Notes: generated by a model not told the origin, from the sequence alone. Positions 6,177 to 34,370 are shown, counted from the stretch's first letter. The stretch: 39,394 nucleotides of DNA from a virus (IMGVR_UViG_2541047825_000011:1-39394), one strand, 5' to 3'. Numbers and translations: made by a program.

Positions 6177-6193
6177 ATTACCTTTCGGGTAAT
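6177..6193. promoter_or_regulatory. Operator-like palindrome ATTACC-TTTCG-GGTAAT
   Basis: Perfect 6-bp inverted arms with 5-bp spacer, 17 bp total, in the intergenic region upstream of the + strand antirepressor island. Confidence 0.6.
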
Positions 6194-6229
6194 TTGCAAA
6201 ACGTGCTGGATAGCAAACAAATTATTTGA

Positions 6230-6249
6230 TACTGTATAAATATACAGTT
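6230..6249 (+). promoter_or_regulatory. LexA (SOS) box
   Basis: TACTGTATAAATATACAGTT matches CTGT-N8-ACAG with an AT-rich spacer; about 20 bp upstream of the ATG at 6269. Confidence 0.7.
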
Positions 6250-6268
6250 ATTGCATGGAGAAGATAAG

Positions 6269-6526
6269 ATGCAGCAGTATCACTATCCACTGGAAGACGG
6301 ATTTACCGAAAGGATTCACACGCCGGGAGGCGTCAGGTCACTGGTGGAGGGATCGCACTTGATGAAATTACTCCGGGATCTCGATAAGGATGGATTTAAT
6401 GTCGATGGCCCACTTGCCGAACTGACTGCACTGATTAACTACGTCACCAGCTCACAGATGTCTATGCAGGATCTGCAAACACATCTCGACTATTGTGCCG
6501 AACAATTACGAAAACAAACCAGATAA
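6269..6526 (+). CDS. Small antirepressor-like protein, stand-alone homolog of the C-terminal domain of the adjacent BRO-N antirepressor
   Basis: ATG 6269 with GGAG 8 nt upstream (track ORF starts at TTG 6251); HTPGGVRSLVEGSHLMKLLRDLDKDGFNVDGPLAELT...QTHLDY aligns with HSPSGVLGLTENSLLMNLLNKLQEDGHDVSGAAAELT...QTHAEY of ORF 6840..7532. Confidence 0.65.
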   Translation: MQQYHYPLEDGFTERIHTPGGVRSLVEGSHLMKLLRDLDKDGFNVDGPLAELTALINYVTSSQMSMQDLQTHLDYCAEQLRKQTR

Positions 6527-6555
6527 GGTTTGCAATTACCAAGTGGAGTGCTTAT

Positions 6556-6574
6556 ATTTACCTTTGAGGTAAAT
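6556..6574. promoter_or_regulatory. Operator-like palindrome ATTTACC-TTTGA-GGTAAAT
   Basis: Perfect 7-bp arms; sits in the loop of a longer inverted repeat AAGTGGAGTGC ... GCACTCCTCTT (6541..6591). Confidence 0.6.
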
Positions 6575-6839
6575 TTACATCGCACTCCTCTTGTGCCATA
6601 GTAATCGGGCACTGGCAAAATCCAGTGCCGGGATTGGCGTCCCGAGTTACTACAGAGGCACATATGCCGCATAAGCGGTTTTTTTTATGTGTAAAGCGCA
6701 CCTATTCTATGGTGGGCTGTGTGGGGGCACCGAAAGGTGCGCCGGGTCCTTTGTAGCCGGTTACGCCAACCCTGCACAGTTCACCACCAACCGATTGGCG
6801 TCGGTAGTGGTGATTAACCTAACTACAAAGGTGATCGCC

Positions 6840-7532
6840 ATGAATACCAAACCTTCCATCTTTTCCTTTGAGTCATCCTGCCAGATCCGTATGTTCATGA
6901 TTGACGGAGAACCTTGGTTTGTCACCAAAGATGTGTGCAATGCTTTGAATATTGATGTTACACAAGCGAGAAAACTTGATAAAAAAGGCTGGAACAAAAA
7001 GGGGCTGTATTCAATACAGACCCCTGGTGGAATACAAGAACTATCCATCGTTTCAGAATCAGGTCTCTACATCCTTATTCTGCGTTGCAAAGAGGCAATG
7101 ACTGAGGGAACGAGAGCATTCAGATTTCTTGAATGGGTTACAGGTGAGGTTCTTCCTCAGATCCGCCGCACCGGAAGTTACATTAAAAACTCGCTCCCGC
7201 AGGAAGAACGCATAAAGATGGTTGCCGACCAGGTAGCCAACGCCACGGCGTCAGCAGTAATGCAGGCGATGAAGATAGAGAACAAAACCTACAGCGCCCC
7301 ACTGAAGCCCGGCTACCGTAGCCTGATTCATTCGCCGTCTGGTGTTCTCGGCCTGACGGAGAACTCACTGCTGATGAATCTGCTGAACAAGTTACAGGAA
7401 GACGGGCACGATGTATCGGGCGCGGCAGCGGAGCTGACCACCATGTTCTGCTACATCGTCGGTGTGAGCAAATGCCTGCGTGATATCCAGACGCACGCGG
7501 AGTACATCAACGACAAAGCAGGGTTCTTCTGA
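6840..7532 (+). CDS. Phage antirepressor with BRO-N type N-terminal domain
   Basis: Track ORF 6687..7532 trimmed to ATG 6840 (GGTGA upstream); N-terminal FESSCQIRMFMIDGEPWFVTKDVCNALNI ... ESGLYILILRCKEAMTEGTRAFRFLEWVTGEVLPQIR matches the Bro-N/antirepressor pattern. Confidence 0.8.
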   Translation: MNTKPSIFSFESSCQIRMFMIDGEPWFVTKDVCNALNIDVTQARKLDKKGWNKKGLYSIQTPGGIQELSIVSESGLYILILRCKEAMTEGTRAFRFLEWVTGEVLPQIRRTGSYIKNSLPQEERIKMVADQVANATASAVMQAMKIENKTYSAPLKPGYRSLIHSPSGVLGLTENSLLMNLLNKLQEDGHDVSGAAAELTTMFCYIVGVSKCLRDIQTHAEYINDKAGFF

Positions 7533-7603
7533 CGGGCGGCGGCACAGGGATGTGCCTTTAAATAATTCTGTACAGATTGCAGACTGGGGGTGAATAGCGT
7601 ACT

Positions 7604-7620
7604 ATTACCTCACGGGTGAT
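7604..7620. promoter_or_regulatory. Operator-like palindrome ATTACC-TCACG-GGTGAT (one mismatch)
   Basis: Same architecture as the other sites; upstream of the orphan gene 7761..8396. Confidence 0.5.
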
Positions 7621-7656
7621 CCATAGCGATTAGGCACCGATACAGGAGGAGCCCAC

Positions 7657-7689
7657 ATGAGAAAATTTGACGAGTACGAAGGCGTTTAA
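7657..7689 (+). CDS. Possible 10-codon leader ORF (MRKFDEYEGV)
   Basis: ATG 7 nt downstream of a perfect AGGAGG; lies between two operator-like sites; may be regulatory rather than a protein. Confidence 0.2.
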   Translation: MRKFDEYEGV

Positions 7690-7703
7690 CATTCGGATAG
7701 TTC

Positions 7704-7722
7704 ATTTACCCTAATGGTAAAT
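7704..7722. promoter_or_regulatory. Operator-like palindrome ATTTACC-CTAAT-GGTAAAT
   Basis: Perfect 7-bp arms, about 40 bp upstream of ATG 7761. Confidence 0.6.
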
Positions 7723-7760
7723 CCCGCTTAAAGAAGCATCTATATATTATGAGGTGATGT

Positions 7761-8396
7761 ATGCCACAACAACTGCTGAATCCGGCAAAGGTAACTGAGG
7801 TTTTCGCTCATCTGAACGAAACTCCAGACAACCGCGCCCTGTATTCAGAGTTAGTGAACGGCAACGATGTCACATCTGATGTCAAAGGCGTTTCTCTGGC
7901 TCCTGGATACCGCGTTGTCCGTGTAGACGATCGTAAGAAAGGCGAGATTCCACAGGCGCACTTTGAACTGTCATTGATAAATGACCTCACCGAAGAGGTA
8001 GTGTATTACAATCGTGTCATTATCCAGCCTGACAGCTATCTTAACTGCCGTCCTGTCACGCAGATATTGGTATGGAGAACCCAGAAGCCTAAGCATCGTG
8101 CTGTGCTTCATGATTTCGCCGGCATCATCTTCATGAACTACCTCTTGGAACGGTACGATATCATCGTGTCAGATCGCAACCAGACTCATGAAGGCATGTC
8201 GTTCTGGCAGGCTCGCATGTATGACGCACTGGAACTTGGCCTCCACCTCTATGGTTACGACATGATGACATGCGAGCTGATAGAGATGAATAACGAGGAA
8301 GAGCTTGAGAAAGGTGAAACCTGGTTGTGGGGTGATGCGGAAAACTTCCAAAACAGATTGGCCATAATTTCAAAGCATAAGCTGCCAATAAAATAG
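7761..8396 (+). CDS. Orphan protein of unknown function in the accessory island (211 aa)
   Basis: ATG with GAGGTGA upstream; no TM segment and no motif I recognise; own operator-flanked upstream region and a strong terminator. Confidence 0.7.
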   Translation: MPQQLLNPAKVTEVFAHLNETPDNRALYSELVNGNDVTSDVKGVSLAPGYRVVRVDDRKKGEIPQAHFELSLINDLTEEVVYYNRVIIQPDSYLNCRPVTQILVWRTQKPKHRAVLHDFAGIIFMNYLLERYDIIVSDRNQTHEGMSFWQARMYDALELGLHLYGYDMMTCELIEMNNEEELEKGETWLWGDAENFQNRLAIISKHKLPIK

Positions 8397-8403
8397 TTCT
8401 TTA

Positions 8404-8426
8404 AGCCCGCGACGCGGGCTTTTTTG
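8404..8426 (+). terminator. Rho-independent terminator of the + strand island
   Basis: AGCCCGC-gac-GCGGGCT followed by TTTTTTG. Confidence 0.8.
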
Positions 8427-8463
8427 TGTCTGCGGATTCCCGCCCGGGCGGCGGTGGCATTCG

Positions 8464-8490
8464 TTAAAAACAAGGCCGCGAAAGCGGCCT
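8464..8490 (-). terminator. Rho-independent terminator of the leftward virion operon
   Basis: AGGCCGC-gaaa-GCGGCCT hairpin with T-run on the minus strand, directly after the lipoprotein gene. Confidence 0.65.
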
Positions 8491-8502
8491 GTGACATGTC
8501 AC
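8491..8502. repeat. 12-bp perfect palindrome GTGACATGTCAC (copy 1 of 3)
   Basis: Exact copies also at 25648..25659 and 27912..27923; all intergenic. Confidence 0.8.
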
Positions 8503-8505
8503 GAC

Positions 8506-8919
8506 TTATAAAGATGACTGATATTTTACAACTCTGTTCATGGCATCTTTTTTCACCGAGCTGATATCAGTTCTTATTTTGGCTTCGTCATTACTGCTTA
8601 TCATGCTATTAATTTTTTGCACTGACATGCCGTTTCTTTCAGCCATTGCACATACAGCAGCATCGTATGAAGAACTCGCTGCGATGGATATCACCTTGTT
8701 ACACTCAAACACAGCACCTTCAGCAATATCAGATGCCGATGAGGCTGGCTTGGTATAAGTCTTGACGTAGTGATCAATACAACTATCCTTCGCCGTCTTG
8801 GCAAGAGAAAAATCCATTTTAACTTTGTCGCAATATGCCTTATCAACACCGTCATAAACATCATAGGATGTCGAGCAAGCGGATATCAAAAATACCGATA
8901 ACAGCAATAATTCCTTCAT
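8506..8919 (-). CDS. Lipoprotein at the end of the virion operon (candidate superinfection-exclusion lipoprotein)
   Basis: Signal peptide with lipobox LISAC; 137 aa; several Cys in the mature part; last gene of the structural operon. Confidence 0.7.
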   Translation of the reverse strand: MKELLLLSVFLISACSTSYDVYDGVDKAYCDKVKMDFSLAKTAKDSCIDHYVKTYTKPASSASDIAEGAVFECNKVISIAASSSYDAAVCAMAERNGMSVQKINSMISSNDEAKIRTDISSVKKDAMNRVVKYQSSL

Positions 8920-8928
8920 TGTTGTTCC

Positions 8929-11403
8929 TTATTGCGGAGTGACATCCTGAGGTCGCCACCAGTATGTCTGGTTAAACTCTTTCTTTGAACGTTGCTCCAT
9001 TTTACGCAAATAGCCTGGTGAAAAATACTCCTGCATCTGGTTAAAGATCATGTGATCGAGAGCCGCCTTTAAGTACCAGAGATTCGCACCTGGCATCAGA
9101 CCTTTCCCCAGCTTAACCAGATCACCACCAGTCTGCTCATTCTTCCCTTCCACAGCATTTAACGGTATGCCCTGAGCAATCTTCACTACGTCATCAACCA
9201 GACCAGCTACCGGGCCAAGCATCGACGCCAACGCGCCGCTTCCGTACCTGGTGTGGTCAGAGAAAAGAAAATCACCATACAACCCTGCACCACCACCTTT
9301 TAAAAATGCATTTATCCAGAATTTAACCATGTTGTCACCGGTCATTTCTTTTGGATTTCTCCCATTAATAAGATCAGTAATCTGCATGGAAAGAGCACCA
9401 AGCATGGTTGTGCTTGCTAAAAACGTTGCTATATATGCTGCACGCCCACCAGCAGACGGCATCCCCATAGCTCTATGCCAGTGACGCATAACTACCGAGA
9501 TAGGGAACGATTTAAACAGGAAAACACTTCTCGTTAATTCACCTTTCCATGTTCCACGCTGAAGACCAGACCCTACGAACATCTGTTCACGTGCGCCCGG
9601 TGTAATAACAGCCATATCAACTTCTTCAGTTACGGCACCGAGCAGTTTACGCATTGCCTCAAATTTCACGCGTTCAGGCTCACCAAGATGTTTAACTGCT
9701 GAATCAGGGATACGCATAATGCTTTCCGGTGTCAGCATCGTATTATTACCGTTCCCCCAGTCCTCCTGTTGCGCCAGCTTCCATACGCTCCAGTCTGTGT
9801 CAGTAATCCCTTTGCTTTTCAGGATACGAAAATCAGAGTCATCGAGGCTACGAAGGTCTGGTGTCCGTGACACTACTTCTCCCAGGCTTCCCATCATGGT
9901 TACGCCATAGGCGCGCTTGTGCGCATCTGACCATGCTGTAAGCCCACTGGCACGCATTACCGCCGTTGCCGCCCAACGAGACACAGACGGCCCCATATTA
10001 TCCATCGCCCAGCGGTTAACGCTGCCAAGTAGAGATTCCATCGCCAGGCCAGCGCGGCGCGCCCGCGCAAGCTCAGTACGGTTCGTTGGGTCCATAGCTT
10101 CAAGCTGGTTGCGAAATAACTGGTTCATTGGAAGGTTGGTAACCTTCGCAGACAGATACATGGTTCCAAGATCAGAGAACGATGACAGCAACGCGGATCC
10201 GAGTCTGCTGGCAACCAGCCAGTTGCGGATATTGTCAGACCATCGCGCGATGTGCGGATTCGCTACAGGCTGTGTTTTTCCGGAAATAAAGTTGTACAAG
10301 TTCTCTGTTTTGTTCGCCAGACGCTCGACGCTACCGGTTTTACTCGGGTTAGCTGTTGCCGTTTCTGCCTTAACCTGATCAAGAAGAGAGCGGAAAACAT
10401 GATCGGGGTTTGGGCCATATGTTTCCACCAGCGCAATATCTTTACTGATACCTTCCAGGTGACCGACCATGATTTCCCATAGAGAGCGATCGCCATAAAG
10501 TTGCTGATATTGCAGATAGGAATCTGCATCTTTGAAATGTATCTGTCGTGATGCATTACCACGGTTAGCACGTGCGCCGGAAATTCGCATTCCGGTATCA
10601 GTAAGCTTATTCAGCCCACCAGTAGCGATCGTGTTATAAGCCTCTCCAAGAAATTCAGACAACTCGGCATCGTTCATCAGTTGTCCATCGGCTCGGGTAT
10701 AATATTTGCGATCCAGCTTACCTATAACATCGCTAACCCACTTATCCTTTGATACCGCCCCAACCTTTTCCATAGAATGATGTTGAGGGATCCCCCAGTT
10801 TTCGAGATAGCCAATGTCACCACCAGCATCATTAAACCGGCGGCGCAGTAGCTCTGTCACTTCTCTCCACGCCTTAGCACCTTTTCTTGCTTTAGCATTG
10901 CCAGTATTTTGCCCTCGCATTTCATATACCAGATCACGCACGCCCGCTTCATCTTCAAACAGGCCAAAAAAGCGAGGATCAACTGCTTCAAATGCCTCCT
11001 GCAATTGACTCAATGCATAATCACGGGTGGCTTTTGTTCTGGATTCAACAGAGAGGAAATTAGATTTACCGTCTGCATTAAAAGCTATAGTACGGTTAAG
11101 AGCGCCAAGTTTCCCATCAGCCCCTTGATAGCTATTGATAAATTTATCCAATCTCTGACGCGCGGCTATAGTGAGAGCCACACGACGTTTCTTTAATGCC
11201 GCTTCTCGCTGTAATTCTTCAGATGCCAATTGTGCTGCTCGATATAGCCGCTCTGATTCGGAAAGTTGTCGCCACGACATCGGGTCATCACGAGCAATGG
11301 AGCGCATATTTCGATAAATGCGGTCTTCAATGTTCTGTATTTCTCGCGCCGTTAACATGCGCTGCGCCGCCTGCTGGACAGCTTGTATACATTCCTGTCT
11401 CAT
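8929..11403 (-). CDS. Internal virion (ejection) protein, large; T7 gp16-like position
   Basis: 824 aa; last large ORF of the virion operon; assignment by size and synteny only. Confidence 0.6.
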   Translation of the reverse strand: MRQECIQAVQQAAQRMLTAREIQNIEDRIYRNMRSIARDDPMSWRQLSESERLYRAAQLASEELQREAALKKRRVALTIAARQRLDKFINSYQGADGKLGALNRTIAFNADGKSNFLSVESRTKATRDYALSQLQEAFEAVDPRFFGLFEDEAGVRDLVYEMRGQNTGNAKARKGAKAWREVTELLRRRFNDAGGDIGYLENWGIPQHHSMEKVGAVSKDKWVSDVIGKLDRKYYTRADGQLMNDAELSEFLGEAYNTIATGGLNKLTDTGMRISGARANRGNASRQIHFKDADSYLQYQQLYGDRSLWEIMVGHLEGISKDIALVETYGPNPDHVFRSLLDQVKAETATANPSKTGSVERLANKTENLYNFISGKTQPVANPHIARWSDNIRNWLVASRLGSALLSSFSDLGTMYLSAKVTNLPMNQLFRNQLEAMDPTNRTELARARRAGLAMESLLGSVNRWAMDNMGPSVSRWAATAVMRASGLTAWSDAHKRAYGVTMMGSLGEVVSRTPDLRSLDDSDFRILKSKGITDTDWSVWKLAQQEDWGNGNNTMLTPESIMRIPDSAVKHLGEPERVKFEAMRKLLGAVTEEVDMAVITPGAREQMFVGSGLQRGTWKGELTRSVFLFKSFPISVVMRHWHRAMGMPSAGGRAAYIATFLASTTMLGALSMQITDLINGRNPKEMTGDNMVKFWINAFLKGGGAGLYGDFLFSDHTRYGSGALASMLGPVAGLVDDVVKIAQGIPLNAVEGKNEQTGGDLVKLGKGLMPGANLWYLKAALDHMIFNQMQEYFSPGYLRKMEQRSKKEFNQTYWWRPQDVTPQ

Positions 11404-11408
11404 TTAAT

Positions 11409-15721: not shown

Positions 15722-15733
15722 CTTATTATCCCC

Positions 15734-19813: not shown

Positions 19814-20142
19814 TACTCACCCCCATTGCCGTACAGAGTTTCAGCCGCTGATTTTTCTACATCCCCGGAAACAGGAGCGATCGCCATATCAGTGATCTGC
19901 AGATCGACGCTGCGATTAACACCATCGTCAGTTTCTCTGGCAGACAGGCCTCGAATAACAGCCTTTGCAGTTATCATCACTTCTGTTCCGACGCCCTGAG
20001 GTTGCGCCTTCAGCTTATTCAATGTGTCGTTATTAAGAGTGATGCACAGCCCCCACGGGTATTCATCGCGAGTTCTGGTTTCTCCGCTCTCATCCTGGTA
20101 GCTGTCAGTGCCGGTTTTGAGGTTTACGAGTTCCATATACAC
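19813..20142 (-). CDS. Hypothetical virion protein
   Basis: 109 aa; translationally coupled within the structural operon. Confidence 0.5.
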   Translation of the reverse strand: MYMELVNLKTGTDSYQDESGETRTRDEYPWGLCITLNNDTLNKLKAQPQGVGTEVMITAKAVIRGLSARETDDGVNRSVDLQITDMAIAPVSGDVEKSAAETLYGNGGE

Positions 20143-20970: not shown

Positions 20971-21021
20971 CTTCTTTCTCCATTAGTGGGCCTGTTGCGG
21001 CCCACAGGTTAATAACAGGCG

Positions 21022-22014: not shown

Positions 22015-22022
22015 TTCCTCTC

Positions 22023-24693: not shown

Positions 24694-24707
24694 TTCAATG
24701 ACTCCGG

Positions 24708-24914: not shown

Positions 24915-24982
24915 ATCAATGACTCCGTACGCAATTAAATTATTACCAATTTAACCACATATGATTTATTTATCGTAGGCAG

Positions 24983-25020
24983 TTGACATTTAACGCACAA
25001 ATTATTACCTTTCAGGTAAC
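24983..25020 (+). promoter_or_regulatory. Candidate promoter (-35 TTGACA) with overlapping operator-like palindrome ATTACC-TTTCA-GGTAAC
   Basis: TTGACA at 24983..24988; palindrome at 25004..25020 where a -10 would lie; oriented toward the tRNA. Confidence 0.4.
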
Positions 25021-25340: not shown

Positions 25341-25417
25341 GTGGCATTAGCTCAGTTGGACAGAGCAACCGCCTTCTAAGCGGTTGGTCGCAGGTTCGAA
25401 TCCTGCATGCCACGCCA
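25341..25417 (+). tRNA. tRNA-Arg (anticodon UCU)
   Basis: 77 nt cloverleaf by hand: acceptor GTGGCAT/ATGCCAC, D-arm GCTC..GAGC, anticodon stem ACCGC/GCGGT with loop CTTCTAA, T-arm GCAGG-TTCGAAT-CCTGC, encoded CCA; differs from host argU in acceptor and anticodon stems. Confidence 0.9.
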
Positions 25418-25460
25418 GAATCACGCCTAAGGACCGTGATGCCAGAAGTTCCAGGGGCTT

Positions 25461-25502
25461 GGCGGTGATGGTTTCCCTTGAAGGACTATCACCGCCCTTT
25501 TT
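25461..25502 (+). terminator. Hairpin with T-run downstream of tRNA
   Basis: GGCGGTGAT ... ATCACCGCC 9-bp stem with long loop, then CTTTTT. Confidence 0.45.
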
Positions 25503-25580
25503 ACAGCAGGACGCCATTGCGATGACTTCATGCTGTAAACCCGTACAGCCACGGAAGGCAAAACTCATTGCTTCCAGTTC

Positions 25581-25604
25581 GCCCGGTTCGCCGGGCATTT
25601 TTTT
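25581..25604 (+). terminator. Rho-independent terminator
   Basis: GCCCGG-ttcg-CCGGGC followed by ATTTTTTT. Confidence 0.75.
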
Positions 25605-25647
25605 AAGGTGTGAATCATGAAATACGAATTCGATGGATTTTGATGTC

Positions 25648-25659
25648 GTGACATGTCAC
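25648..25659. repeat. 12-bp perfect palindrome GTGACATGTCAC (copy 2 of 3)
   Basis: About 75 bp beyond the terL stop, at the right edge of the tRNA island. Confidence 0.8.
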
Positions 25660-25663
25660 AAAC

Positions 25664-25690
25664 AGCCAGCCGATGAGCTGGCTTTGTTTT
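25664..25690 (+). terminator. Hairpin plus T-run
   Basis: AGCCAGC-cgatga-GCTGGCT followed by TTGTTTT. Confidence 0.5.
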
Positions 25691-25733
25691 ATCATCATCA
25701 GAGGATATCAACGATATTATCCCCTCAAGCGGA

Positions 25734-27209: not shown

Positions 27210-27802
27210 TGATTACCATCCTGACGTTCTTTGAGTCGCTTCCTGGCTGCCGCTATGCGATCAGCAATTGTCACATTCACATTAACATCCAGGCGTTCTT
27301 TGAACGCGTTGACGTCGACGTGCTTACCAATCAGTTCGAGGTTCTTCACCTTGTCAGGCCATTTAATTTTTTTGAGGATTGTCTCTATCGAATCCTCGTT
27401 CATGTTCATGATGGTCGATGACAGATCAAAGCCACTAAGCGTAGTGCGCCAGATTTTCGGCCACTCGCGGATTGGCTTAAGGCTCCCATCGTCGTTGAGG
27501 ATGTCGATCACGTCCATCTGGTCGATCTCCACTAGGCGCATGAGAACGTAATCAGCACTGACGCGCATTCGTTTGTTGCGCTCCTCCATCAACTCGGCAA
27601 TCCGTTTTTGAATGCGTTCATCGCGCATCATGACACTGGCTTTAACTGCCGCTGTATTTGGGGAGAATCCTGCGTTAATCGCTGCCTGAGTCTGGTTTTC
27701 AGGCGTTTTGATGTATGACTGGCAATAAGCCTCCTGCATTGCTGTTAGTGGCTTAAATTGCGTTGATTTGCGTTTATAGGTTTTAGGTTCAGCAGGCATC
27801 AT
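27206..27802 (-). CDS. Terminase small subunit
   Basis: Track ORF 27206..27898 trimmed to the ATG pair at 27802/27799 because a hairpin with T-run and direct repeats occupy 27803..27898. Confidence 0.6.
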   Translation of the reverse strand: MMPAEPKTYKRKSTQFKPLTAMQEAYCQSYIKTPENQTQAAINAGFSPNTAAVKASVMMRDERIQKRIAELMEERNKRMRVSADYVLMRLVEIDQMDVIDILNDDGSLKPIREWPKIWRTTLSGFDLSSTIMNMNEDSIETILKKIKWPDKVKNLELIGKHVDVNAFKERLDVNVNVTIADRIAAARKRLKERQDGNQ

Positions 27803-27809
27803 AACCACC

Positions 27810-27838
27810 GTGGTAATAGTTACCGTTGTGGTAATAGT
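27810..27838. repeat. Two 11-bp direct repeats GTGGTAATAGT just upstream of terS
   Basis: Copies at 27810..27820 and 27828..27838; each carries a TTACC half-site on the coding strand. Confidence 0.55.
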
Positions 27839-27844
27839 ACCATG

Positions 27845-27871
27845 CAAAATAAAGCCGCCATAGTTGGCGGC
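27845..27871 (-). terminator. Terminator-like hairpin in the terS leader
   Basis: GCCGCCA-tagt-TGGCGGC; T-rich run follows on the minus strand. Confidence 0.45.
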
Positions 27872-27911
27872 AGTATTCAAAACCATCAAATTCATCATGC
27901 ATAATCTACTC

Positions 27912-27923
27912 GTGACATGTCAC
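27912..27923. repeat. 12-bp perfect palindrome GTGACATGTCAC (copy 3 of 3)
   Basis: Overlaps the stop codon of gene 27920..28261, upstream of terS. Confidence 0.8.
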
Positions 27924-28261
27924 ACTATTAATTTCGTTTCATGCCAGCCTTTAGTCACCCAGCATTGTGAGTCACCATTACACGGACATGAATTAACTGG
28001 AACTCTCTCGCCGCACTTACCGCAACGTTTTCTAATGATCGATTTTATACGCCCGCGCACGCGTGCATCATCCTGGCGGATCAGTAACGCTATATACTCA
28101 CAAAATTCGTAAGGCGCACGCCCGGGGCGACGCGCAGCACAGTTACGCTCAAGCATTTCAATTTCCTGAGCATCAAGCACAATTTCCAGCTTACGCACAC
28201 CAGATGCAGCTTGTCTGGCTCTCTGAGCGGCTTTGCGCTCTGCTGCTGATTTAGCCATCAA
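27920..28261 (-). CDS. Cys-rich small basic protein (candidate zinc-ribbon regulator)
   Basis: 113 aa; basic helical N-terminus; C-terminal CGKCGERVPVNSCPCNGDSQC cluster; last gene before the packaging genes. Confidence 0.55.
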   Translation of the reverse strand: MMAKSAAERKAAQRARQAASGVRKLEIVLDAQEIEMLERNCAARRPGRAPYEFCEYIALLIRQDDARVRGRIKSIIRKRCGKCGERVPVNSCPCNGDSQCWVTKGWHETKLIV

Positions 28262-28532
28262 TATTTACCTTTATCGCGAACACCTTTACCGGTTTATCAC
28301 CGAAGTGGGGGTGTGTGATTGTCTTGATTTCATATCCGTCATACGGGACGTCAATTCTGCGACTGGAGTCGTCGCGCTTCGGATATCCCCTTGTGATAAT
28401 CAGGCGGTCATACTTACGGTTAACGAGGCGCTTATTCCAGTAGTCATTACACAAGCGATACTCTTCCGTTTTCTCTCCACGAATCATGGCATCGAAGTAT
28501 TCACCTTTGACGGCAAGTTGCAGGTTAGCCAC
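28251..28532 (-). CDS. Hypothetical nin-region protein
   Basis: 93 aa; coupled to flanking ORFs. Confidence 0.55.
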   Translation of the reverse strand: MANLQLAVKGEYFDAMIRGEKTEEYRLCNDYWNKRLVNRKYDRLIITRGYPKRDDSSRRIDVPYDGYEIKTITHPHFGDKPVKVFAIKVNIDG

Positions 28533-29151
28533 GGTTAACCTCCTGCGGCGGTTCCGGTAGCGGCATCCAGTGGGTTACTTTCGATGCCGGTTCTTCCACA
28601 TCGTCAGTAACTGCCCACCATTTGTTTTTCGACCAATCGTAATACCCTTCGAAGGTATCGCACTCAGTCCAGCCGTAAGACTTCCCCCAACACCAAACAT
28701 ACTGTTTATCGTTCGGCATTCGCTCACTACAGCTTATCCAACCATCCGGAGTTACCGGAGAGTTGCCCGACAGCTCGTTCAACTTATAAGTCTGGCTTAC
28801 AGGTTCGGCACCATTAAGCATGGAGGCGCGGCAGGCGTTCCAGCCTTCATCAAAGCCGACTATGCCATTATTTAAAGACGGACGAGCATCTGGCACCATC
28901 GGCACTGGCTTGGCTATATATAGCGGCTGAACATACCAGCCCTTTGATAACCAACTGTCAGCAATGTTTTTACTCCTCGTTATTGCCGGAATACCTAAGC
29001 CATTTTCTGAATGCAGCCATGCCACCGGCTCCTCTTCTAGCGATGCCAGAGCAATTTCATAAGCACGGCGCTCAATATTGTCTCGCACGTCCAGGCTGCC
29101 TATGCGTTCTTTGATTTCTTTAATCATTTCTTTGTCGGTTAAAGTTGTCAT
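28525..29151 (-). CDS. Phage protein with DUF551-like C-terminal domain
   Basis: 208 aa; Trp-rich C-terminus VWCWGKSYGWTECDTFEGYYDWSKNKWW...HWMPLPEPP. Confidence 0.6.
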   Translation of the reverse strand: MTTLTDKEMIKEIKERIGSLDVRDNIERRAYEIALASLEEEPVAWLHSENGLGIPAITRSKNIADSWLSKGWYVQPLYIAKPVPMVPDARPSLNNGIVGFDEGWNACRASMLNGAEPVSQTYKLNELSGNSPVTPDGWISCSERMPNDKQYVWCWGKSYGWTECDTFEGYYDWSKNKWWAVTDDVEEPASKVTHWMPLPEPPQEVNRG

Positions 29152-29154
29152 GTG

Positions 29155-29472
29155 TTAGTCCTCATCCACTTCAACGCCATCTTTCAGCGTGATGCCGTGC
29201 CAATCATCAGCCCAACTGGTTAGCCCTGGCGCATCAATGCTAGGCATATAAACGCTTGCAGTGTGGTAGCCCTTATCGTTATCAATGCTGGCAACGTGCT
29301 CGCCGTTGTATGCGCTCAGCGTGTCCAGGACGCTATAAAACTTTCCTCCGGCTGCCCTGAAATCCTTTACAGCCTTCACAAGGCGATTCCACGCTTTTTC
29401 CTGTTCTGGCGTCAGGTCGATTAATTCCTGCAAAGTTGCCATATCACCCTCCTTTGATGCCAATGCCAGCAA
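29155..29472 (-). CDS. Hypothetical nin-region protein
   Basis: 105 aa; possible later start at Met11. Confidence 0.5.
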   Translation of the reverse strand: MLALASKEGDMATLQELIDLTPEQEKAWNRLVKAVKDFRAAGGKFYSVLDTLSAYNGEHVASIDNDKGYHTASVYMPSIDAPGLTSWADDWHGITLKDGVEVDED

Positions 29473-30205
29473 GCCAGTTTCTTATGCCGATATATTCAGC
29501 GTTCCTGAAACCGCCATTTACATATATAAATGGCAAGCGAAGATTGTGACCATTGGCTGCCAGGTAGTCTTTACAACCCTGTTCGGTGAAACAGCAGGTA
29601 ACGAATTCATCAATATCTTTCACAGCAACGCGCCGCCATTTTTCTGGTGGTTCCCGAAAGTTTTCATGAAGTAGTTCGAGACGACGACTTTGGCGTTTAT
29701 TGGCTTCATTGCCATCTTCATCAACCCAGACAATCCTGTCATAGTCATAATCAGCATCAACAACGATTTCGCGCTTTTGATACACACAAAACATAGGGTC
29801 TGACGTTATTCGATTATCCTGTGTTCGAATATTTTCACCGATGATGCCAAACGAATCTGGTGCAGATTTTGTCTTCAACTCTTCGATACGTTTGCTTTGA
29901 GCTTCCAGTTCATCAAGAAGCGCAAGCATGGTAGCCGGACTGGCTGCGGCGATGAATTCAGCATTTGCCTGCTGTTCCATTTGGAAATCTTCATCGAAAC
30001 CGCTTTCAGGATGCGCTCCTTCAATTCTGCAAATGGGAATATATCCAGCAGCCTCGCGATGAATTAGCGCATCATCACCATCAAATCGGCCCTCTCCATA
30101 TTCGAGCGACCATACACCACACGTTGCTTTCTCTGCCTTTTCACGCAGTGCCTGATAGTCAATCTTGCTCACTGGTTTCCTCCTTTGCGAAGCTGTTCCG
30201 CACAA
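29444..30205 (-). CDS. Ead/Ea22-like protein
   Basis: 253 aa; N-terminal KIDYQALREKAEKATCGVWSLEYG and coiled-coil segment typical of lambdoid Ea22-type proteins; start uncertain. Confidence 0.55.
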   Translation of the reverse strand: MCGTASQRRKPVSKIDYQALREKAEKATCGVWSLEYGEGRFDGDDALIHREAAGYIPICRIEGAHPESGFDEDFQMEQQANAEFIAAASPATMLALLDELEAQSKRIEELKTKSAPDSFGIIGENIRTQDNRITSDPMFCVYQKREIVVDADYDYDRIVWVDEDGNEANKRQSRRLELLHENFREPPEKWRRVAVKDIDEFVTCCFTEQGCKDYLAANGHNLRLPFIYVNGGFRNAEYIGIRNWLAGIGIKGG

Positions 30206-30828
30206 TCCAGCAGGGCGTCCGTCGCTTCTTTCACCGTAACGATGTCGCCATCGTCCAGCCCGACAACCGTCGCGTTCTTAACGAACACCGAGCAAAGGTC
30301 ATTAAACGCCTGCGCCCGCACTTCAGCCAGGCATTTGCGAAACTCGGAAACGTACTGTTCGACGCTCATTCCCCAGCTAAGTGGACATTCATTGAATGTT
30401 TCGCCTTCGTGCTCTTCATCAGGTAGCTCTTTGGTAAAGAACTCACGTTCAATGGCGTGGAGTGTGTCAGCAAAACGACGTAAGTTACTCAAACCTGTCG
30501 TAATGGAGAATTCAGGAGCATCACATCCGACGCCCATCTGCTGATAAACGGCGGTTTTGAAGGCCTTCAGCCCCGCATTCTCCGCCGCCAACGCCGAAAA
30601 CTTCTCGTGTGCCAACTTAACAGCCGCATCAGCCTGCTTAATTGACTCAATCGCTTTCTGCTGGTCTTCGGCCAGCGCATTAGCACGCACCAGTTGCACT
30701 TCCAGTTGCGTTGCCAAATCGCTGATCAGCTTTGCCACACTGCGCATATCAACGGCACCACATTCTGCTTTCAGTTCCGAAGCCATCTCATGCCCGGCGG
30801 CAACTAACCCTTTGATATTACTTTCCAT
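30169..30828 (-). CDS. Hypothetical coiled-coil protein
   Basis: 219 aa, helical composition. Confidence 0.55.
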   Translation of the reverse strand: MESNIKGLVAAGHEMASELKAECGAVDMRSVAKLISDLATQLEVQLVRANALAEDQQKAIESIKQADAAVKLAHEKFSALAAENAGLKAFKTAVYQQMGVGCDAPEFSITTGLSNLRRFADTLHAIEREFFTKELPDEEHEGETFNECPLSWGMSVEQYVSEFRKCLAEVRAQAFNDLCSVFVKNATVVGLDDGDIVTVKEATDALLDCAEQLRKGGNQ

Positions 30829-30889
30829 CTTTACCCTCGCTTATCCACATAACTTATTGATTACATTGATAACTAAAAAGATCGTCGAT

Positions 30890-31234
30890 TCAGAACTCTT
30901 CGATGTTCCAGCCACCACCTGTTTTCTTTGGTTTAACCGTTACCCCGATGATTCGGAACGGATACTGATCTGCGGCGACTTTGGTTTTCACCCTGGCGTC
31001 GTCGGTCCAGAAACCTTTCACTTCGTGCAGTTCCATCTCTCCGGTGGCGAGCATCACAGCGAAATCTGGCGTATAGAACGTGTTGTCAGCTAACCGCAGC
31101 TTGATACCCTCGAATCGATACCAGGCGATTTCCCCTGCACGTTTACGCAGCTCAAGGTGCTGGCAATACGCAGATTCAGTTTTGTTCATCTGGCCTGTTT
31201 TGAGTCGACCAAGAGCCTGTATCTGTTTTCTCAT
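30890..31234 (-). CDS. Small PD-(D/E)xK-type nuclease-like protein (DUF1064-like)
   Basis: 114 aa; motif YTPDFAV...GEMELHEVKG fits PD...ExK; its SD lies inside an operator-like palindrome. Confidence 0.6.
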   Translation of the reverse strand: MRKQIQALGRLKTGQMNKTESAYCQHLELRKRAGEIAWYRFEGIKLRLADNTFYTPDFAVMLATGEMELHEVKGFWTDDARVKTKVAADQYPFRIIGVTVKPKKTGGGWNIEEF

Positions 31235-31235
31235 G

Positions 31236-31254
31236 ATTTACCTCTGAGGTAATT
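31236..31254. promoter_or_regulatory. Operator-like palindrome ATTTACC-TCTGA-GGTAATT
   Basis: Overlaps the Shine-Dalgarno and start of gene 30890..31234. Confidence 0.55.
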
Positions 31255-31287
31255 AAAAACCACATAAGACATGAAATCAATAGAGTT

Positions 31288-31315
31288 TATAATATTTTGT
31301 TACCTAACAGGTAAT
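31288..31315. promoter_or_regulatory. TATAAT hexamer plus operator-like palindrome GTTACC-TAACA-GGTAAT
   Basis: TATAAT at 31288..31293; palindrome at 31299..31315; intergenic between the P-like gene and the nin-like genes. Confidence 0.5.
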
Positions 31316-31326
31316 TATCGAGGCGT

Positions 31327-31346
31327 AAAAAAATGCGCTATCGCGC
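31327..31346 (-). terminator. Possible terminator after P-like gene
   Basis: Short GC stem GCGC-gata-GCGC followed by a long T-run on the minus strand. Confidence 0.35.
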
Positions 31347-31351
31347 TGGTA

Positions 31352-32128
31352 TTACTTGATAAATCCTGCCGCCTTTCCCCGCCTGTATTCCTCCATCAGC
31401 CACTGCGCCGGTGTTATTCCCCCAAGGGTGGCGGCGTTAGGCATGCACCCGAAACTTCGCCCTGGTGGATGGTAAACGTCTCTCCCTGTGTCCGGAGGTG
31501 TACTCATGGGCTCTGGCTTTGCCTGTATGCTGATCACCGGATCGGGTATCTGCTGTCCGGAAGCCACCTTTTTCGCCCAATCATCGAGCAGCCTGCGCGC
31601 GTGTTTCTCAACCTCACTCTCGCTAAGCTGGCGCTGATACATTGCACGACGGGTATCACATACGACCCAGTACATAACCGGATGCCGCCACGGGAATCTT
31701 TCGGGACCACCAGGATATAAACTTTTTTCCTTGCTGTACCGGTGAAACTCCGCCATCACATCGTCAATGGTGACGCCAAGAACCATCTTGCTGTCTTTGC
31801 ACCACTTGATGAATTGCCCTGGCGACGGCCAGAACGGAGATTCACTGGCGCGGGCGTGGCGCATACCAGCGTTAACCTGTTCCATTGTAGTGATCCCATT
31901 CTCCAGAAACGCAAGCATCCATTGCTTACGGAATTCATTAAGTTTGTTCTGCTCCCTTATGGTCGAAACGCTTGCAGGAAATGCAGCCTGTAACTGGACA
32001 AATAGTTCATTGAAAATTCTAGCAACCTGCTCCTTTTTGCCATTGCTGTCACGCCGCTCTTCATGCACAGCAACACCATGCTCACGTAAGCGATCGTACT
32101 CATTGAGAAGTTCTGGAGTTGATTTCAT
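31352..32128 (-). CDS. Replication protein P-like (helicase loader)
   Basis: 258 aa; block IFNELFVQLQAAFPASV...EFRKQWMLAFLENGITTMEQVNAGMRHAR...PSPGQFIKWC closely parallels the lambda P N-terminal region as I recall it. Confidence 0.8.
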   Translation of the reverse strand: MKSTPELLNEYDRLREHGVAVHEERRDSNGKKEQVARIFNELFVQLQAAFPASVSTIREQNKLNEFRKQWMLAFLENGITTMEQVNAGMRHARASESPFWPSPGQFIKWCKDSKMVLGVTIDDVMAEFHRYSKEKSLYPGGPERFPWRHPVMYWVVCDTRRAMYQRQLSESEVEKHARRLLDDWAKKVASGQQIPDPVISIQAKPEPMSTPPDTGRDVYHPPGRSFGCMPNAATLGGITPAQWLMEEYRRGKAAGFIK

Positions 32129-32924
32129 CCCACACCCCTTCTATCCAGTCAGTGTTATTCCAGTCAAGCTCATCGCTTTTCCCGGCATTTTTTGATTTTC
32201 CCCTGATATGATTTACGTGCCTGGCGAATTTTTGTTCCCACTGAACCTGCGTGAACACTTTGCCCTCAGCCATCCAGTAATCCCGGAATGCAGCAAGTTC
32301 AGCAGGTGTAAATTCCGGTTCCGGCAGGGCCGTTCCCCACAGCGCAGCACGCCGCCGAAAATCTGGCGACGGTAGCCAGCCATCTGTCATCGGAAATTTC
32401 CCGATGGGTTCACTCAGGCCATCCAGAAATTCAGGTTCTGCCACCTGCAACGGCGTACTGTTCGCTTCACTGGTCGGAGCACCCTCGCGCACGTGCGCTA
32501 TGTGTGGGGTTTTATATATATCTTCCTCTTCCTCTGGTAACTCCTTTTGTAACGCTGTTGGCGTTACTTTTTGCGTTACTCGTTTTCGATGCTCTGCCAC
32601 TCTTCTATTCGTAAGTGCACGTTTTTTCGATGATTCTCCATTATGTCGCTCAAAGTTTGGAAGAATTAGTTTGCCGTCATGATAAGCAAGCCATCCGACG
32701 CTAATGAGGGCGTCAGCAAATCCTGTAATAAAAGCGAGTCTATCAAGTACTCCTTTTGTAACGCTGCCAGCGTTACCGTCTATTGTTTGCTGGTCAGCCC
32801 ATGCCCATATACGAACCAGCTTTCCAAGAACAGCATCTGGATCAATACCCAGAATTTCTGCTATCTGAAAAATTTCAGGTTTATCAGGAGTGATAACTTC
32901 AACCTTAATCCAGCTGCTTGCCAT
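32100..32924 (-). CDS. Replication initiation protein (O-like, with DnaT-like C-terminal region)
   Basis: Track ORF trimmed to ATG 32924 (AGAGGGGAA upstream); N-terminal winged-helix-like MASSWIKVEV...; C-terminal FTPAELAAFRDYW...QWEQKF; overlaps the P-like start. Confidence 0.65.
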   Translation of the reverse strand: MASSWIKVEVITPDKPEIFQIAEILGIDPDAVLGKLVRIWAWADQQTIDGNAGSVTKGVLDRLAFITGFADALISVGWLAYHDGKLILPNFERHNGESSKKRALTNRRVAEHRKRVTQKVTPTALQKELPEEEEDIYKTPHIAHVREGAPTSEANSTPLQVAEPEFLDGLSEPIGKFPMTDGWLPSPDFRRRAALWGTALPEPEFTPAELAAFRDYWMAEGKVFTQVQWEQKFARHVNHIRGKSKNAGKSDELDWNNTDWIEGVWDEINSRTSQ

Positions 32925-33117
32925 AGGTTTCCCCTCTTGCACTCTTTAGTGCACAAGCAAATTCATTACGATGGCGGTTGGCGCTATTCATTGCACATTC
33001 AACACATGTTCCGTTCAGAACATACCTTTCAGAGAGATGGCCGTGACGGCACCGCTTTCCTGTGAAATAGCGATTTAACCCGGCTTTTGCGGCCTCCATT
33101 CTGGTTACTATCTTCAA
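32905..33117 (-). CDS. Small Cys/His-containing protein in the cII position
   Basis: 70 aa; CRHGH...CVEC pattern; between cro and the replication genes. Confidence 0.5.
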   Translation of the reverse strand: MKIVTRMEAAKAGLNRYFTGKRCRHGHLSERYVLNGTCVECAMNSANRHRNEFACALKSARGETYGKQLD

Positions 33118-33220
33118 TTTTTCCGCCCCTTTTTGTTATTGATATTGGCTATTTTGCACAATTGGAAAATTTGATCAACCAGATTTGGTTTTTTATTACC
33201 CTTAAGGTGCGAATAGATAT

Positions 33221-33243
33221 GAAAAGACCGCCGGATGGCGGTC
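33221..33243 (-). terminator. Rho-independent terminator downstream of cro (tR1-like)
   Basis: GACCGCC-atcc-GGCGGTC followed by TTTTC on the minus strand. Confidence 0.65.
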
Positions 33244-33265
33244 TACAGAGGGTTGTGGCTGGATA

Positions 33266-33496
33266 TCATGAGTAGAAGAAGTATGCCAGTTCTGCTTTTG
33301 AGCGCAGCCATTGTCTTGTTTTACAGGCTTTAAAAAGCCCATTCATCAATACTTTACCTGGCATTTTGCGCTTACCTGTTAAGTGAGTCTGGATATAGTG
33401 ACTCGTCGTTCCGGCTTCCTGTGCGAAGGCTTCACGCTCATCCGGAGTAAGTGCAAGCCAGTGCTTTTTGAAATCGAAATGTCCGTTATCGCTCAT
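33266..33496 (-). CDS. cro: Cro-like small HTH regulator
   Basis: 76 aa; transcribed divergently from the repressor gene across a 154-bp operator region; symbol is functional, by position. Confidence 0.7.
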   Translation of the reverse strand: MSDNGHFDFKKHWLALTPDEREAFAQEAGTTSHYIQTHLTGKRKMPGKVLMNGLFKACKTRQWLRSKAELAYFFYS

Positions 33497-33650
33497 AGCT
33501 ATTGCCTGATATTTATTTCAGATAATAAATATTCACCCATAAGGTAACAAAAATCAAGGATAGTTACCTGTGGGGTGCATTTACCTGTTGGGTAATATTG
33601 CTTTAAATTGAATCATCTACTGATTCATATATGAGGCGATTTTCCAGAAA
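33497..33650. promoter_or_regulatory. Immunity-region operator/promoter cluster
   Basis: Three ACC-N5-GGT sites (33532..33548, 33563..33579, 33579..33597) plus a 24-bp AT-rich palindrome ATATTTATT-tcagat-AATAAATAT (33509..33532) between the divergent cro and repressor starts. Confidence 0.7.
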
Positions 33651-34235
33651 ATGAAAAGTATCCAGGACGTCCGCAGGCAAAATCTCAACGACTTGATCGA
33701 CCGTGAATTCAATGGTGTTCAGACGCGGATGGCTGAAAAACTTGGAACTCAGGCAAATCTGGTAAACCGCTGGGCTCTTGGCAAGAAGGTTATCGGCGAC
33801 CAGGTTGCACGAAAAATTGAAGCTGCCGCCAATAAACCCCGTAACTGGCTTGATATCGATCGCTCGCTTTCTCAGGAAGGTTTTCAGCCTGTCGGCCCAA
33901 GCGACATTGGCCAGCTGGCGGCTCACAACCTGGAACGCTGGATGAGCGAAAGCCGCGACCTTTCAACACAGGGAAAACTTCACCGCGCATCCGGCGTAGC
34001 CCAGGTGACAATCAGCCGCCTGTTAAACAATGAGGTCAGCGTTTCCATTTCCACCCTGGAGAATGTTGCATCCGCATTCGGGCGTCACGGCTATGAATTA
34101 CTGATTCACCCGCACGACCCTGCGACCATCAACTATGATCGCTCGCGCTACGCATTGTTACCCGAAACCGAGAAAGCAAAGATCGAAAGTTACATTGAAT
34201 TTGTCATCAACCAGAACGAAAAAAACAAACAATAA
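33651..34235 (+). CDS. Prophage repressor (cI-like) with two HTH motifs and no recognisable autocleavage module
   Basis: 194 aa; two XRE-type HTH segments (QTRMAEKLGTQANLVNRWALG and KLHRASGVAQVTISRLLNN); no Ala-Gly or Cys-Gly dipeptide and no S24-like C-terminal region. Confidence 0.75.
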   Translation: MKSIQDVRRQNLNDLIDREFNGVQTRMAEKLGTQANLVNRWALGKKVIGDQVARKIEAAANKPRNWLDIDRSLSQEGFQPVGPSDIGQLAAHNLERWMSESRDLSTQGKLHRASGVAQVTISRLLNNEVSVSISTLENVASAFGRHGYELLIHPHDPATINYDRSRYALLPETEKAKIESYIEFVINQNEKNKQ

Positions 34236-34257
34236 AACCATATTTTTCAGTAAGTAA

Positions 34258-34282
34258 GCCGCCTTATGGCGGCTTTTTTATT
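34258..34282 (+). terminator. Rho-independent terminator after the repressor gene
   Basis: GCCGCC-ttat-GGCGGC followed by TTTTTTATT. Confidence 0.8.
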
Positions 34283-34291
34283 GCCTATTCG

Positions 34292-34308
34292 ATTACCTAA
34301 CGGGTAAT
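34292..34308. promoter_or_regulatory. Operator-like palindrome ATTACC-TAACG-GGTAAT
   Basis: Perfect arms; upstream of the early-left promoter. Confidence 0.6.
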
Positions 34309-34326
34309 TTTTTTAACTCATATCTA

Positions 34327-34370
34327 TTGACATCAAACCATATACGCATAATTATTACCTCAACGGTAAC
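34327..34370 (+). promoter_or_regulatory. Early-left promoter candidate (-35 TTGACA) with overlapping operator ATTACC-TCAAC-GGTAAC
   Basis: TTGACA at 34327..34332; AT-rich -10 region around 34347..34355; palindrome at 34354..34370; GAGGT RBS and ATG 34389 follow. Confidence 0.55.

Follow-up and report, generated by a model that had tools for sequence, protein, structure and literature searches.

Palindromic sites dispersed over a Uetakevirus prophage as putative operators of its immunity repressor

Distribution and conservation of the palindrome

The stretch of DNA analysed in this work, IMGVR_UViG_2541047825_000011:1-39394 (39,394 nucleotides, below called the window), carries a phiV10/epsilon15-like prophage, that of a podovirus of the genus Uetakevirus, with ZX5, TL-2011b, phiv142-3 and phiV10 as its nearest relatives (96-98% identity). 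The left 1.18 kb (1-1179) constitutes the host flank, with the att core ATTGAGTGGGAATGATT at 1163-1179 (-), and the right end (39394) coincides with the start codon of the integrase gene. Scattered over the prophage are copies of the palindrome ATTACC-N5-GGTAAT, which, judged from sequence comparisons, are very probably operators of an SPC32H-type immunity repressor, Rep, placed at the head of nearly every transcription unit. An initial annotation of this DNA had listed the palindrome at 12 positions, and a motif scan recovered it at all of them, adding a tandem pair in front of the terminase gene TerS, a late unit, which had been missed. The gene map used for the division into coding and non-coding sequence was carried over from phiV10; under this map, non-coding DNA amounts to 3,089 nt, or 7.8% of the window. 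The sites are:

6177, 6557, 7604, 7705, 25004, 27801, 27819, 31237, 31299, 33580, 34292, 34354: copies of the 17-mer ATTACC-N5-GGTAAT with at most two mismatches
6178, 6558, 7706, 25005, 31238, 31300, 33581, 34293, 34355: exact copies of the 15-bp core TTACC-N5-GGTAA that were on the initial list
27820: tenth exact copy of the core, absent from that list

The 10 exact cores found in 39.4 kb compare with 0.03 expected, and no comparable result was obtained in any of 100 shuffles. Among the other listed sites, the core deviates by one base at 7604 and at 33532, and by two at 33563. For the 17-mer, 2, 10 and 12 sites were found at zero, up to one and up to two mismatches, respectively, whereas simulation with a Markov-2 model predicted 0.00, 0.055 and 1.4; when non-coding composition was simulated, 0.19 sites with up to two mismatches were expected. 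All of the 12 sites reside in non-coding DNA (binomial P = 5e-14). Enrichment over shuffled and coding sequence, which should accompany a functional motif according to the initial annotation, is thus evident, and so is the intergenic location of every copy, provided that TerS starts at its ATG and not at the TTG given in the phiV10 RefSeq record. Since 17-mers with three mismatches are not enriched in non-coding DNA (3 of 28, against 2.2 expected), the signal is restricted to good matches. In an unbiased tally of palindromes composed of 5+5 bases with gaps of 0-10, TTACC-N5-GGTAA ranked first with its 10 copies, and the next independent motif had 3.

Position relative to promoter elements is a further common feature of the sites. 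At least six of them share a layout in which base 2 of the operator is also the last base of the -10 hexamer, and in five of these a TTG trinucleotide stands in the -35 register. When 14 sites were considered in both orientations, TTG occurred in the exact -35 register in 5 of the 28 cases (P = 1.5e-4), and all 5 face the downstream gene. The operators themselves are palindromic and exhibit no strand bias.

The same motif is present in the relatives. In phiV10, epsilon15, SPC32H and Tyrion, 14-18 sites each were found when one core mismatch was allowed, against less than 1 expected, and operator sites occupy equivalent relative positions in these genomes. Two prophages with Reps 54-55% identical to that of the window, one of them from Serratia, keep TTACC-N5-GGTAA at equivalent positions. 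All 80 IMG/VR viral contigs kept from 225 tblastn-confirmed matches carry the Rep allele of the window with 100% identity; protein homologues were found down to 52% identity, and the Reps of epsilon15 and SPC32H are 42% identical to it. The operator half-site remains unchanged across the genus even with Reps of 42% identity, and no heteroimmune variant was found there. As for the 5-bp spacers, epsilon15 and SPC32H have A/T-rich ones, and those of phiV10-type phages are mixed in composition.

Part of this arrangement has been annotated before. The GenBank record of epsilon15 (AY150271.2) contains seven 'protein_bind / repressor / lysogeny' features, all of them ATTACC-N5-GGTAAT, which lie upstream of TerS, upstream of gp3, in the gap between the ant homologue and the tailspike gene, at the early-left operator region (OL; three sites) and after the replication genes. 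The window has a site at the equivalent position for six of the seven, the exception being the third OL site (32479-32494). Left unannotated in that record are the sites between the cro-like and repressor genes (OR), the second TerS site and the second site of the nin unit, all of which a motif scan of epsilon15 finds. Because seven such sites are labelled 'repressor' there, the dispersed regulon is not new but prior art, annotated for epsilon15 in 2007, and the repressor family has already been studied structurally. The paper associated with the epsilon15 record is reportedly that of Kropinski et al. 2007 (Virology 369:234), and the Rep-Ant switch of SPC32H is said to have been described by Kim & Ryu 2013 and Kim et al. 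2016 (PDB 5D50, 5D4Z). A literature search for the motif or for operators of Uetakevirus revealed nothing beyond the epsilon15 annotation.

The repressor and the early and late promoters

The following features belong to the immunity region and to the operators on the replication, terminase and tRNA side:

33195..33211: weak site ATTACCCTTAAGGTGCG, directly past the terminator of the cro gene
33266..33496 (-): cro-like gene, 76 amino acids, with a weak helix-turn-helix (HTH) motif
33532..33596: OR, in the interval from the cro-like gene to rep, with three operator positions
33532-33548: OR site TTCACCCATAAGGTAAC
33563-33579: OR site GTTACCTGTGGGGTGCA, degenerate
33580-33596: OR site TTTACCTGTTGGGTAAT
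33651..34235 (+): Rep, the immunity repressor
34292..34370 (+): PL (early-left) cassette
31237..31315 (-): 'Pnin' cassette, after the P-like replication gene, heading the DUF1064/nin unit
27801..27835: tandem TerS operators, 18 bp apart, ATAACCACCGTGGTAAT (27801-27817) and GTTACCGTTGTGGTAAT (27819-27835)
25004..25020: operator ATTACCTTTCAGGTAAC, with an invariant TTGACA (24983-24988) 17 nt before a TACCTT inside the operator

Rep is identical (100%) to p40 of phiV10, and its residues 1-190 match chain A of PDB 5D50 (E = 4e-42). Searches against Pfam detected in it families of the HTH type alone (HTH_3, HTH_26 and similar), and the S24 peptidase domain was not found; the C-terminus is homologous to the tetramerisation region of SPC32H Rep. 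Rep is therefore best described, on sequence grounds, as a predicted tetrameric repressor of the SPC32H type, with the HTH at the N-terminus, a dimerisation domain in the middle and a tetramerisation domain at the C-terminus. In the solved structure of the SPC32H Rep-Ant complex (PDB 5D50), the two chains are homologues of Rep and of the antirepressor Ant. In an alignment of 12 Reps (42-100% identical), which took in those of epsilon15, SPC32H, Tyrion and BUCT554, residues N36, R40 and W41 of the putative recognition helix are invariant, and this is consistent with the unchanged operator half-site.

It should be considered whether the cro-like protein (33266-33496) or some other regulator of the phage is the chief ligand of the sites, which would then serve lytic timing and not lysogenic silencing. 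The product of the cro-like gene is a small HTH protein, weakly similar to the Rep HTH, and it belongs to a family annotated 'transcriptional repressor' (PHROG 35, 5.6e-13); a PDB search with it gave no match. In λ, moreover, Cro and CI use common operators. The putative recognition helix of the cro-like protein (TSHYIQTH) is, however, dissimilar to that of Rep (QANLVNRW), and in the epsilon15 record the repressor is named as the ligand. Of the five operators bound by the prophage repressor in telomere phages, only one is bound by Cro (PMC4997575). In ZX5, the Rep of which is reported to be identical, over-expression of Rep by itself silences late genes, lowering endolysin/holin transcripts by more than 99.9%; operators are mentioned generically only in that 2022 paper (PMC9782041). 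We thus regard control chiefly by the cro-like protein as distinctly improbable and Rep as the likely ligand.

The initial annotation had compared the copies of the immunity region with OR and OL of λ, and this layout was recovered: the gap between the cro-like gene and rep contains three conserved positions, and the TTGACA of the early-left promoter has a site on either side. Centre-to-centre spacings within OR are 31 and 17 bp. Degenerate sequences stand at two of the positions in this phage, 33532 and 33563 (with 3 and 4 mismatches), yet all three positions are kept in 5 genomes; in epsilon15 and SPC32H the middle site has a perfect core. The cro-proximal site falls within the predicted cro promoter, and the rep-proximal site overlaps a conserved TTTACC-17-TTAAAT. 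At the position equivalent to the weak site 33195, one-mismatch cores are present in phiV10 (33112) and Tyrion (35365).

The PL and Pnin cassettes are built on a common plan, namely distal operator, 18 bp, (TA)TTGAnn, 17 bp and -10 element, the last two bases of which are the first two bases of the proximal operator. In PL, the distal operator (34292-34308) is followed by -35 TTGACA (34327-34332) and -10 AATTAT (34350-34355), the latter fused to the proximal operator (34354-34370); the epsilon15 homologues of the two operators are the 'repressor' features 32554-32570 and 32616-32632. In Pnin, the order is distal operator (31299-31315), -35 TTGATT (31280-31275) and -10 TTTAAT (31257-31252), fused to the proximal operator (31253-31237), which encloses the Shine-Dalgarno sequence of the first gene of the unit (DUF1064); here the distal operator corresponds to the epsilon15 'repressor' feature 35906-35922. 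An alignment of nine PL and Pnin cassettes, taken from five genomes, needed no gaps; mean identity was 50%, and neither the two operators nor TATTGA varied. In all genomes compared, 62 bp separate the operator centres, which are located at about -62 and +1.

In front of TerS, a terminator (27854-27871) is followed by an extended -10 element, the two operators and the TerS ATG. The extended -10, TGgTACTAT at 27842-27834 (-), overlaps the distal operator (27819-27835), and TGnTAsTAT is invariant in 7 genomes; this distal operator is homologous to the epsilon15 'repressor' feature 12-27. The ATG (27805/27802) is the annotated start in epsilon15, SPC32H, ZX5 and Tyrion, giving proteins of 198-199 amino acids with Terminase_2 beginning at residue 20. 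In the phiV10 RefSeq record (NC_007804.2, 41-715) TerS has a TTG start and 224 amino acids, the equivalent in the window being 27802-27880 (-). The TTG start is probably wrong, since the reading frame would traverse a rho-independent terminator as well as both operators.

The promoter at 25004 points to the right, toward the gene of tRNA-Arg(UCU) at 25341-25417, in the place of which relatives have other cargo. This operator is homologous to the epsilon15 'repressor' feature 2931-2947. The tRNA-Arg gene (anticodon UCU, (+) strand) overlaps an opposite-strand open reading frame (ORF), 25350-25598 (-), a homologue of phiV10 p04, which is probably not a gene.

The initial annotation had also found the dispersed copies reminiscent of stoperators, and one might suppose that they act as elongation roadblocks of this kind, or as insulators behind terminators. 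Several of them (the TerS pair, 31237 over the Shine-Dalgarno sequence, and 33195) do lie past a terminator, adjoining the next start codon, and a bound tetramer could halt read-through transcription too. On the other hand, the sites are palindromic without strand bias, and six are in exact register with -10 elements for which the -35 or TGn partner is conserved. Stoperators lack such symmetry, follow the direction of transcription and mostly lie away from promoters (PMC6550527). The likeness to stoperators was therefore not borne out, as palindromic sites at least six of which overlap a -10 element point to promoter operators; a roadblock function as the principal one seems unlikely to us. 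The two roles are not mutually exclusive.

Antirepressor genes and variable cargo

Between the tailspike gene and orf211 the following features were recognized:

6177..6193: operator ATTACCTTTCGGGTAAT, without mismatches, between the divergent tailspike and ant genes
6230..6248 (+): LexA box TACTGTATAAATATACAGT, over the ant promoter
6269..6526 (+): gene of the small antirepressor Ant, 85 amino acids
6557..6573: operator TTTACCTTTGAGGTAAA, overlapping the -10 element of TTGCAA(6530)-17-TATATT(6553-6558)
6609-6685 (+): isrK small RNA
6705-6791 (+): C4 antisense RNA
6834..7532 (+): BRO-N antirepressor gene
7604..7620: operator ATTACCTCACGGGTGAT, overlapping the -10 element of TTGCAG(7577)-17-TACTAT(7600-7605)
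7705..7721: operator TTTACCCTAATGGTAAA, 40 bp upstream of orf211, of uncertain role

It had been proposed that the immunity protein directly controls its own antirepressors. This idea is supported by position for one of the two antirepressor genes and is doubtful for the other. The small Ant matches the SPC32H anti-repressor (PDB 5D50 chain E, E = 4e-47), and the LexA box over its promoter is a perfect one, the CTGT-N8-ACAG of which is invariant in 7 genomes. The operator at 6177, homologous to the epsilon15 'repressor' feature 19895-19911 and conserved in 7 genomes, is centred some 57 bp ahead of the presumed start of ant, and 36 bp separate its end from the LexA box. Direct repression of ant by Rep is unlikely because of this position of the operator, and because Ant must be expressible while Rep is active. 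The operator suits the divergent tailspike side at least equally well, where a weak (-) promoter, TTGTTT-17-GCAAAT, stands in register.

The case of the BRO-N module is different in that control by Rep, predicted from the arrangement of the elements, is well supported by position. Apart from overlapping a -10 element, the operator at 6557 adjoins the -35 of the isrK promoter, TTTACA(6574)-17-CATAGT, with 7 nt between this element and the 5' end of isrK. Operators of this type are kept in phiV10, Tyrion, phiv142-3 and ZX5, and none was found at this position in epsilon15 or SPC32H, both devoid of the BRO-N gene; among the genomes compared, the operator thus occurs only in those that carry the BRO-N antirepressor gene. 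Two RNAs, isrK (an Hfq-binding small RNA; Rfam RF01394, 74.2 bits) and C4 (RF01695, 79.5 bits), are encoded in tandem between ant and the BRO-N gene, and both exceed the Rfam gathering scores. Rfam detects the pair in phiV10 and Tyrion as well, and does not detect it in epsilon15, the genome in which absence was checked. In the records of the relatives this region is described as 'misc_feature' or 'ash family protein' only. The protein encoded downstream (Pfam Bro-N, 1.8e-13) is 75% identical to p23 of phiV10. The succession isrK-C4-BRO-N resembles the RNA-controlled antirepressor module of P1 immI or of the Gifsy-1-like type.

Further downstream, the operator at 7604 would head a Rep-gated slot for variable cargo. 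This reading is based on the finding that in phiv142-3 an identical promoter/operator is followed by unrelated ORFs, and on the lack of matches to orf211: beyond conserved flanks, neither this gene nor its upstream region (7533-8500) matched anything in a collection of 50,697 phage records. orf211 was assigned to PHROG 1349, of unknown function, and for orf211, orf137 and p55 no functional match was obtained in Pfam, PHROGs or NCBIfam. A micro-ORF of 10 codons (7658-7690) lies between the 7604 and 7705 operators.

Identical heads followed by different cargo could also indicate that the palindromes are mainly mosaic-junction sequences which favour recombination at module boundaries, regulation being secondary. 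Besides orf211 versus other ORFs after 7604, RuvC alternates with DUF1064 after Pnin, and a tRNA gene in some genomes with ORFs in others downstream of 25004. A junction role leaves unexplained the register with the -10 elements, the 62-bp pairing and the OR/OL placement, as well as conservation of the half-site next to a freely varying 5-bp spacer, and cargo exchange is an expected by-product of conserved regulatory heads. We consider such an origin of the pattern very improbable in comparison with an operator function.

As to further units, the initial annotation had pointed to copies in front of the BRO-N gene and orf211, at the Shine-Dalgarno sequence of the DUF1064-like gene and at a candidate tRNA promoter; all were found as described, the last at a conserved TTGACA promoter that faces the tRNA gene. 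Upstream of the lysis cassette (3088-3316), the TCACC-N5-GGTAA site of the relatives was not detected and only a GGTAAC half-site is present; the oac/serotype-conversion region is absent there. As a whole, the initial interpretation is partly supported, and its core, a dispersed regulon, is in essence correct.

Proposed action of Rep and comparison with known systems

In the light of these arrangements, the following mechanism may be proposed. In a lysogen, Rep would occupy PR (the cro promoter) and its own promoter through the three OR sites, the early-left promoter, Pnin as a second early promoter past the replication genes, and the terminase promoter. It would also occupy the promoter of the second antirepressor module, isrK-C4-BRO-N, two slots for variable cargo (tRNA-Arg and orf211) and the divergent region between tailspike and ant. 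With the -10 hexamer running into the operator as far as base 2, Rep bound at six sites or more would cover both -10 and +1 and block initiation. At PL and Pnin, one Rep tetramer would probably bridge the two operators spaced by 62 bp, clamping the promoter in a small loop. Upon SOS induction LexA would leave the ant promoter, and the Ant then produced would strip Rep from DNA, so that all units open together; Rep would hence be inactivated by LexA-controlled Ant and not by RecA-mediated cleavage. The derepressed BRO-N antirepressor would provide a plausible feed-forward step.

Published data on this type of repressor bear on the proposed bridging. As summarised in one report, Rep binds DNA as a tetramer, in which the DNA-binding pairs are drawn from different dimers (PMC9638917). 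Another describes the C-terminal domain as a 'TetDloop' DNA-looping fold, with two domain pairs about 100 Å apart (PMC9986798), and the mechanism of repression by Rep was characterized in this 2023 paper as still little characterised. The 62-bp pairs, free of insertions and deletions, and the tandem pairs at 17-18 bp would have the spacing expected of a tetrameric Rep. Binding of Rep at each site is inferred, and so is the way in which, and how strongly, it would act at 6177, 7705 and 25004.

Several points weigh against this interpretation. The half-site is constant at every divergence of Rep sampled, so that there is no covariation of repressor and operator to be read. At 6177, 7705 and 25004, no strong sigma-70 promoter overlapping the operator in the standard register was found. 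A 62-bp loop is short, and looping is deduced from the fixed spacing and the known tetramer only. Finally, the cro-like HTH protein could be a ligand of some sites, or of all.

A farther-reaching proposal, which we put forward tentatively as possible rather than probable, is that Rep, instead of working as a simple dimer at single operators, clamps promoters by 62-bp operator bridging, with the bridging module duplicated at PL and Pnin and kept free of indels across enterobacterial Uetakeviruses. Taken with Rep sites directly on the terminase promoter and on the RNA-controlled second antirepressor, the resulting control would be a single-layer switch of all units and not a cascade of the λ style. 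Specificity, if any, would then reside in the spacer or in the Ant-Rep pairing, since Reps as distant as 42% identity share the half-site.

Among the known systems, that of epsilon15 and SPC32H is the closest, and the phage of the window appears by its sequence to be a member of this Rep-operator system of Uetakevirus. The motif is identical in epsilon15, and genus and gene order are common to both. The window has additional sites at 6557 (isrK-C4-BRO-N) and at 7604 and 7705 (orf211 slot), in modules which epsilon15 lacks, and has neither a third OL site nor one ahead of the lysis cassette. Likeness to SPC32H includes the Rep and Ant homologues, the LexA box over the ant promoter and the operator motif at equivalent places, whereas Rep is only about 42% identical and the window adds an antirepressor of the BRO-N type behind the isrK and C4 RNAs.

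The designation 'lambda-like', used initially for the palindrome, is appropriate with respect to sequence and geometry, as the sites are 17 bp long and two-fold symmetric, and the half-site ATTACC is one base from ATCACC. λ likewise has sites in the region between its divergent cro and repressor genes and at its early-left promoter, overlapping divergent promoters. The designation does not extend to the protein or to the spacing. Rep is of the tetrameric type, has no LexA-like cleavage domain and is predicted to be induced through an antirepressor, and the spacings are 17-18, 31 and 62 bp, against 23-24 bp in λ. Moreover, the six λ operators are confined to the immunity region, while the window has at least nine elsewhere, at late and accessory promoters too. 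Membership in the λ-type CI/Cro system was rejected, given the absence of the S24 domain, the 31/17 bp spacing in OR and an OL of two sites 62 bp apart.

In P1, the c4-ant operon (Op51) is controlled by C1. The C4 RNA of the window (RF01695) similarly precedes an antirepressor gene and lies behind promoter-like elements touched by the operator at 6557. P1 likewise has one immunity repressor with dispersed operators (22 for C1), including those of replication and late-regulator genes (PMC8546580). The differences are that P1 operators are asymmetric (ATTGCTCTAATAAATTT; PMC8546580), that C1 is unrelated to Rep and that the P1 prophage is a plasmid. Membership in a C1 network of the P1 type was rejected, the operator being palindromic and of another sequence, and Rep matching HTH-type Pfam families only. 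With the stoperators of cluster A phages (L5 gp71) the window shares many repressor sites beyond the immunity region, mostly in short intergenic gaps. Stoperators are 13-bp asymmetric sequences, transcription-oriented and mostly non-promoter (PMC6550527), whereas most sites of the window are fused to a -10 element. This class was also rejected, as the sites are perfect or near-perfect palindromes and at least six are fused to a -10 with a conserved -35 or TGn.

The result is a complete, position-resolved map of putative operators for a very common type of E. coli prophage, the identical Rep allele being present in at least 80 viral contigs, and such phages carry O-antigen-modifying and other cargo. 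Three genes are predicted from the map to be silent in the lysogen, those of the tRNA, orf211 and the BRO-N antirepressor, and the small Ant is predicted to stay free for the SOS response. Its spacing rules (17-18 bp and 62 bp) may be used to probe how the structurally unusual tetrameric Rep engages DNA. What the window adds is module-specific sites and a clearer architecture; the regulatory system is not of a new kind.

Some other sequence elements were noted during this analysis. A near-operator, TTACCYTAAAGGTAT, is kept about 45 bp upstream of int in the relatives; in this phage, that position is beyond the window edge. The motif CATATGTGGTT-N5-GGTAAT, followed by TAnnnT, occurs at 6127-6147 (-) and 24942-24962 (-), upstream of the tailspike gene and of gp3 (head operon), respectively. 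It includes one operator half-site and is invariant in 6-7 genomes, and ATGTGGTT occurs once more in the Pnin spacer (31258). These elements may represent activator-dependent late promoters.

A second perfect palindrome, the 12-bp GTGACATGTCAC, is located at 8491-8502, 25648-25659 and 27912-27923. All three copies are intergenic, each beside an intrinsic-terminator hairpin, and their settings are the end of the p55 regulator gene before TerS, the region after TerL and that after the last structural gene. The palindrome may be a site for a late regulator or for antitermination. It is found at the three equivalent places in epsilon15 (39612, 2142 and 19517), and at two of the three in phiV10 and Tyrion, the records of which are cut at the third.

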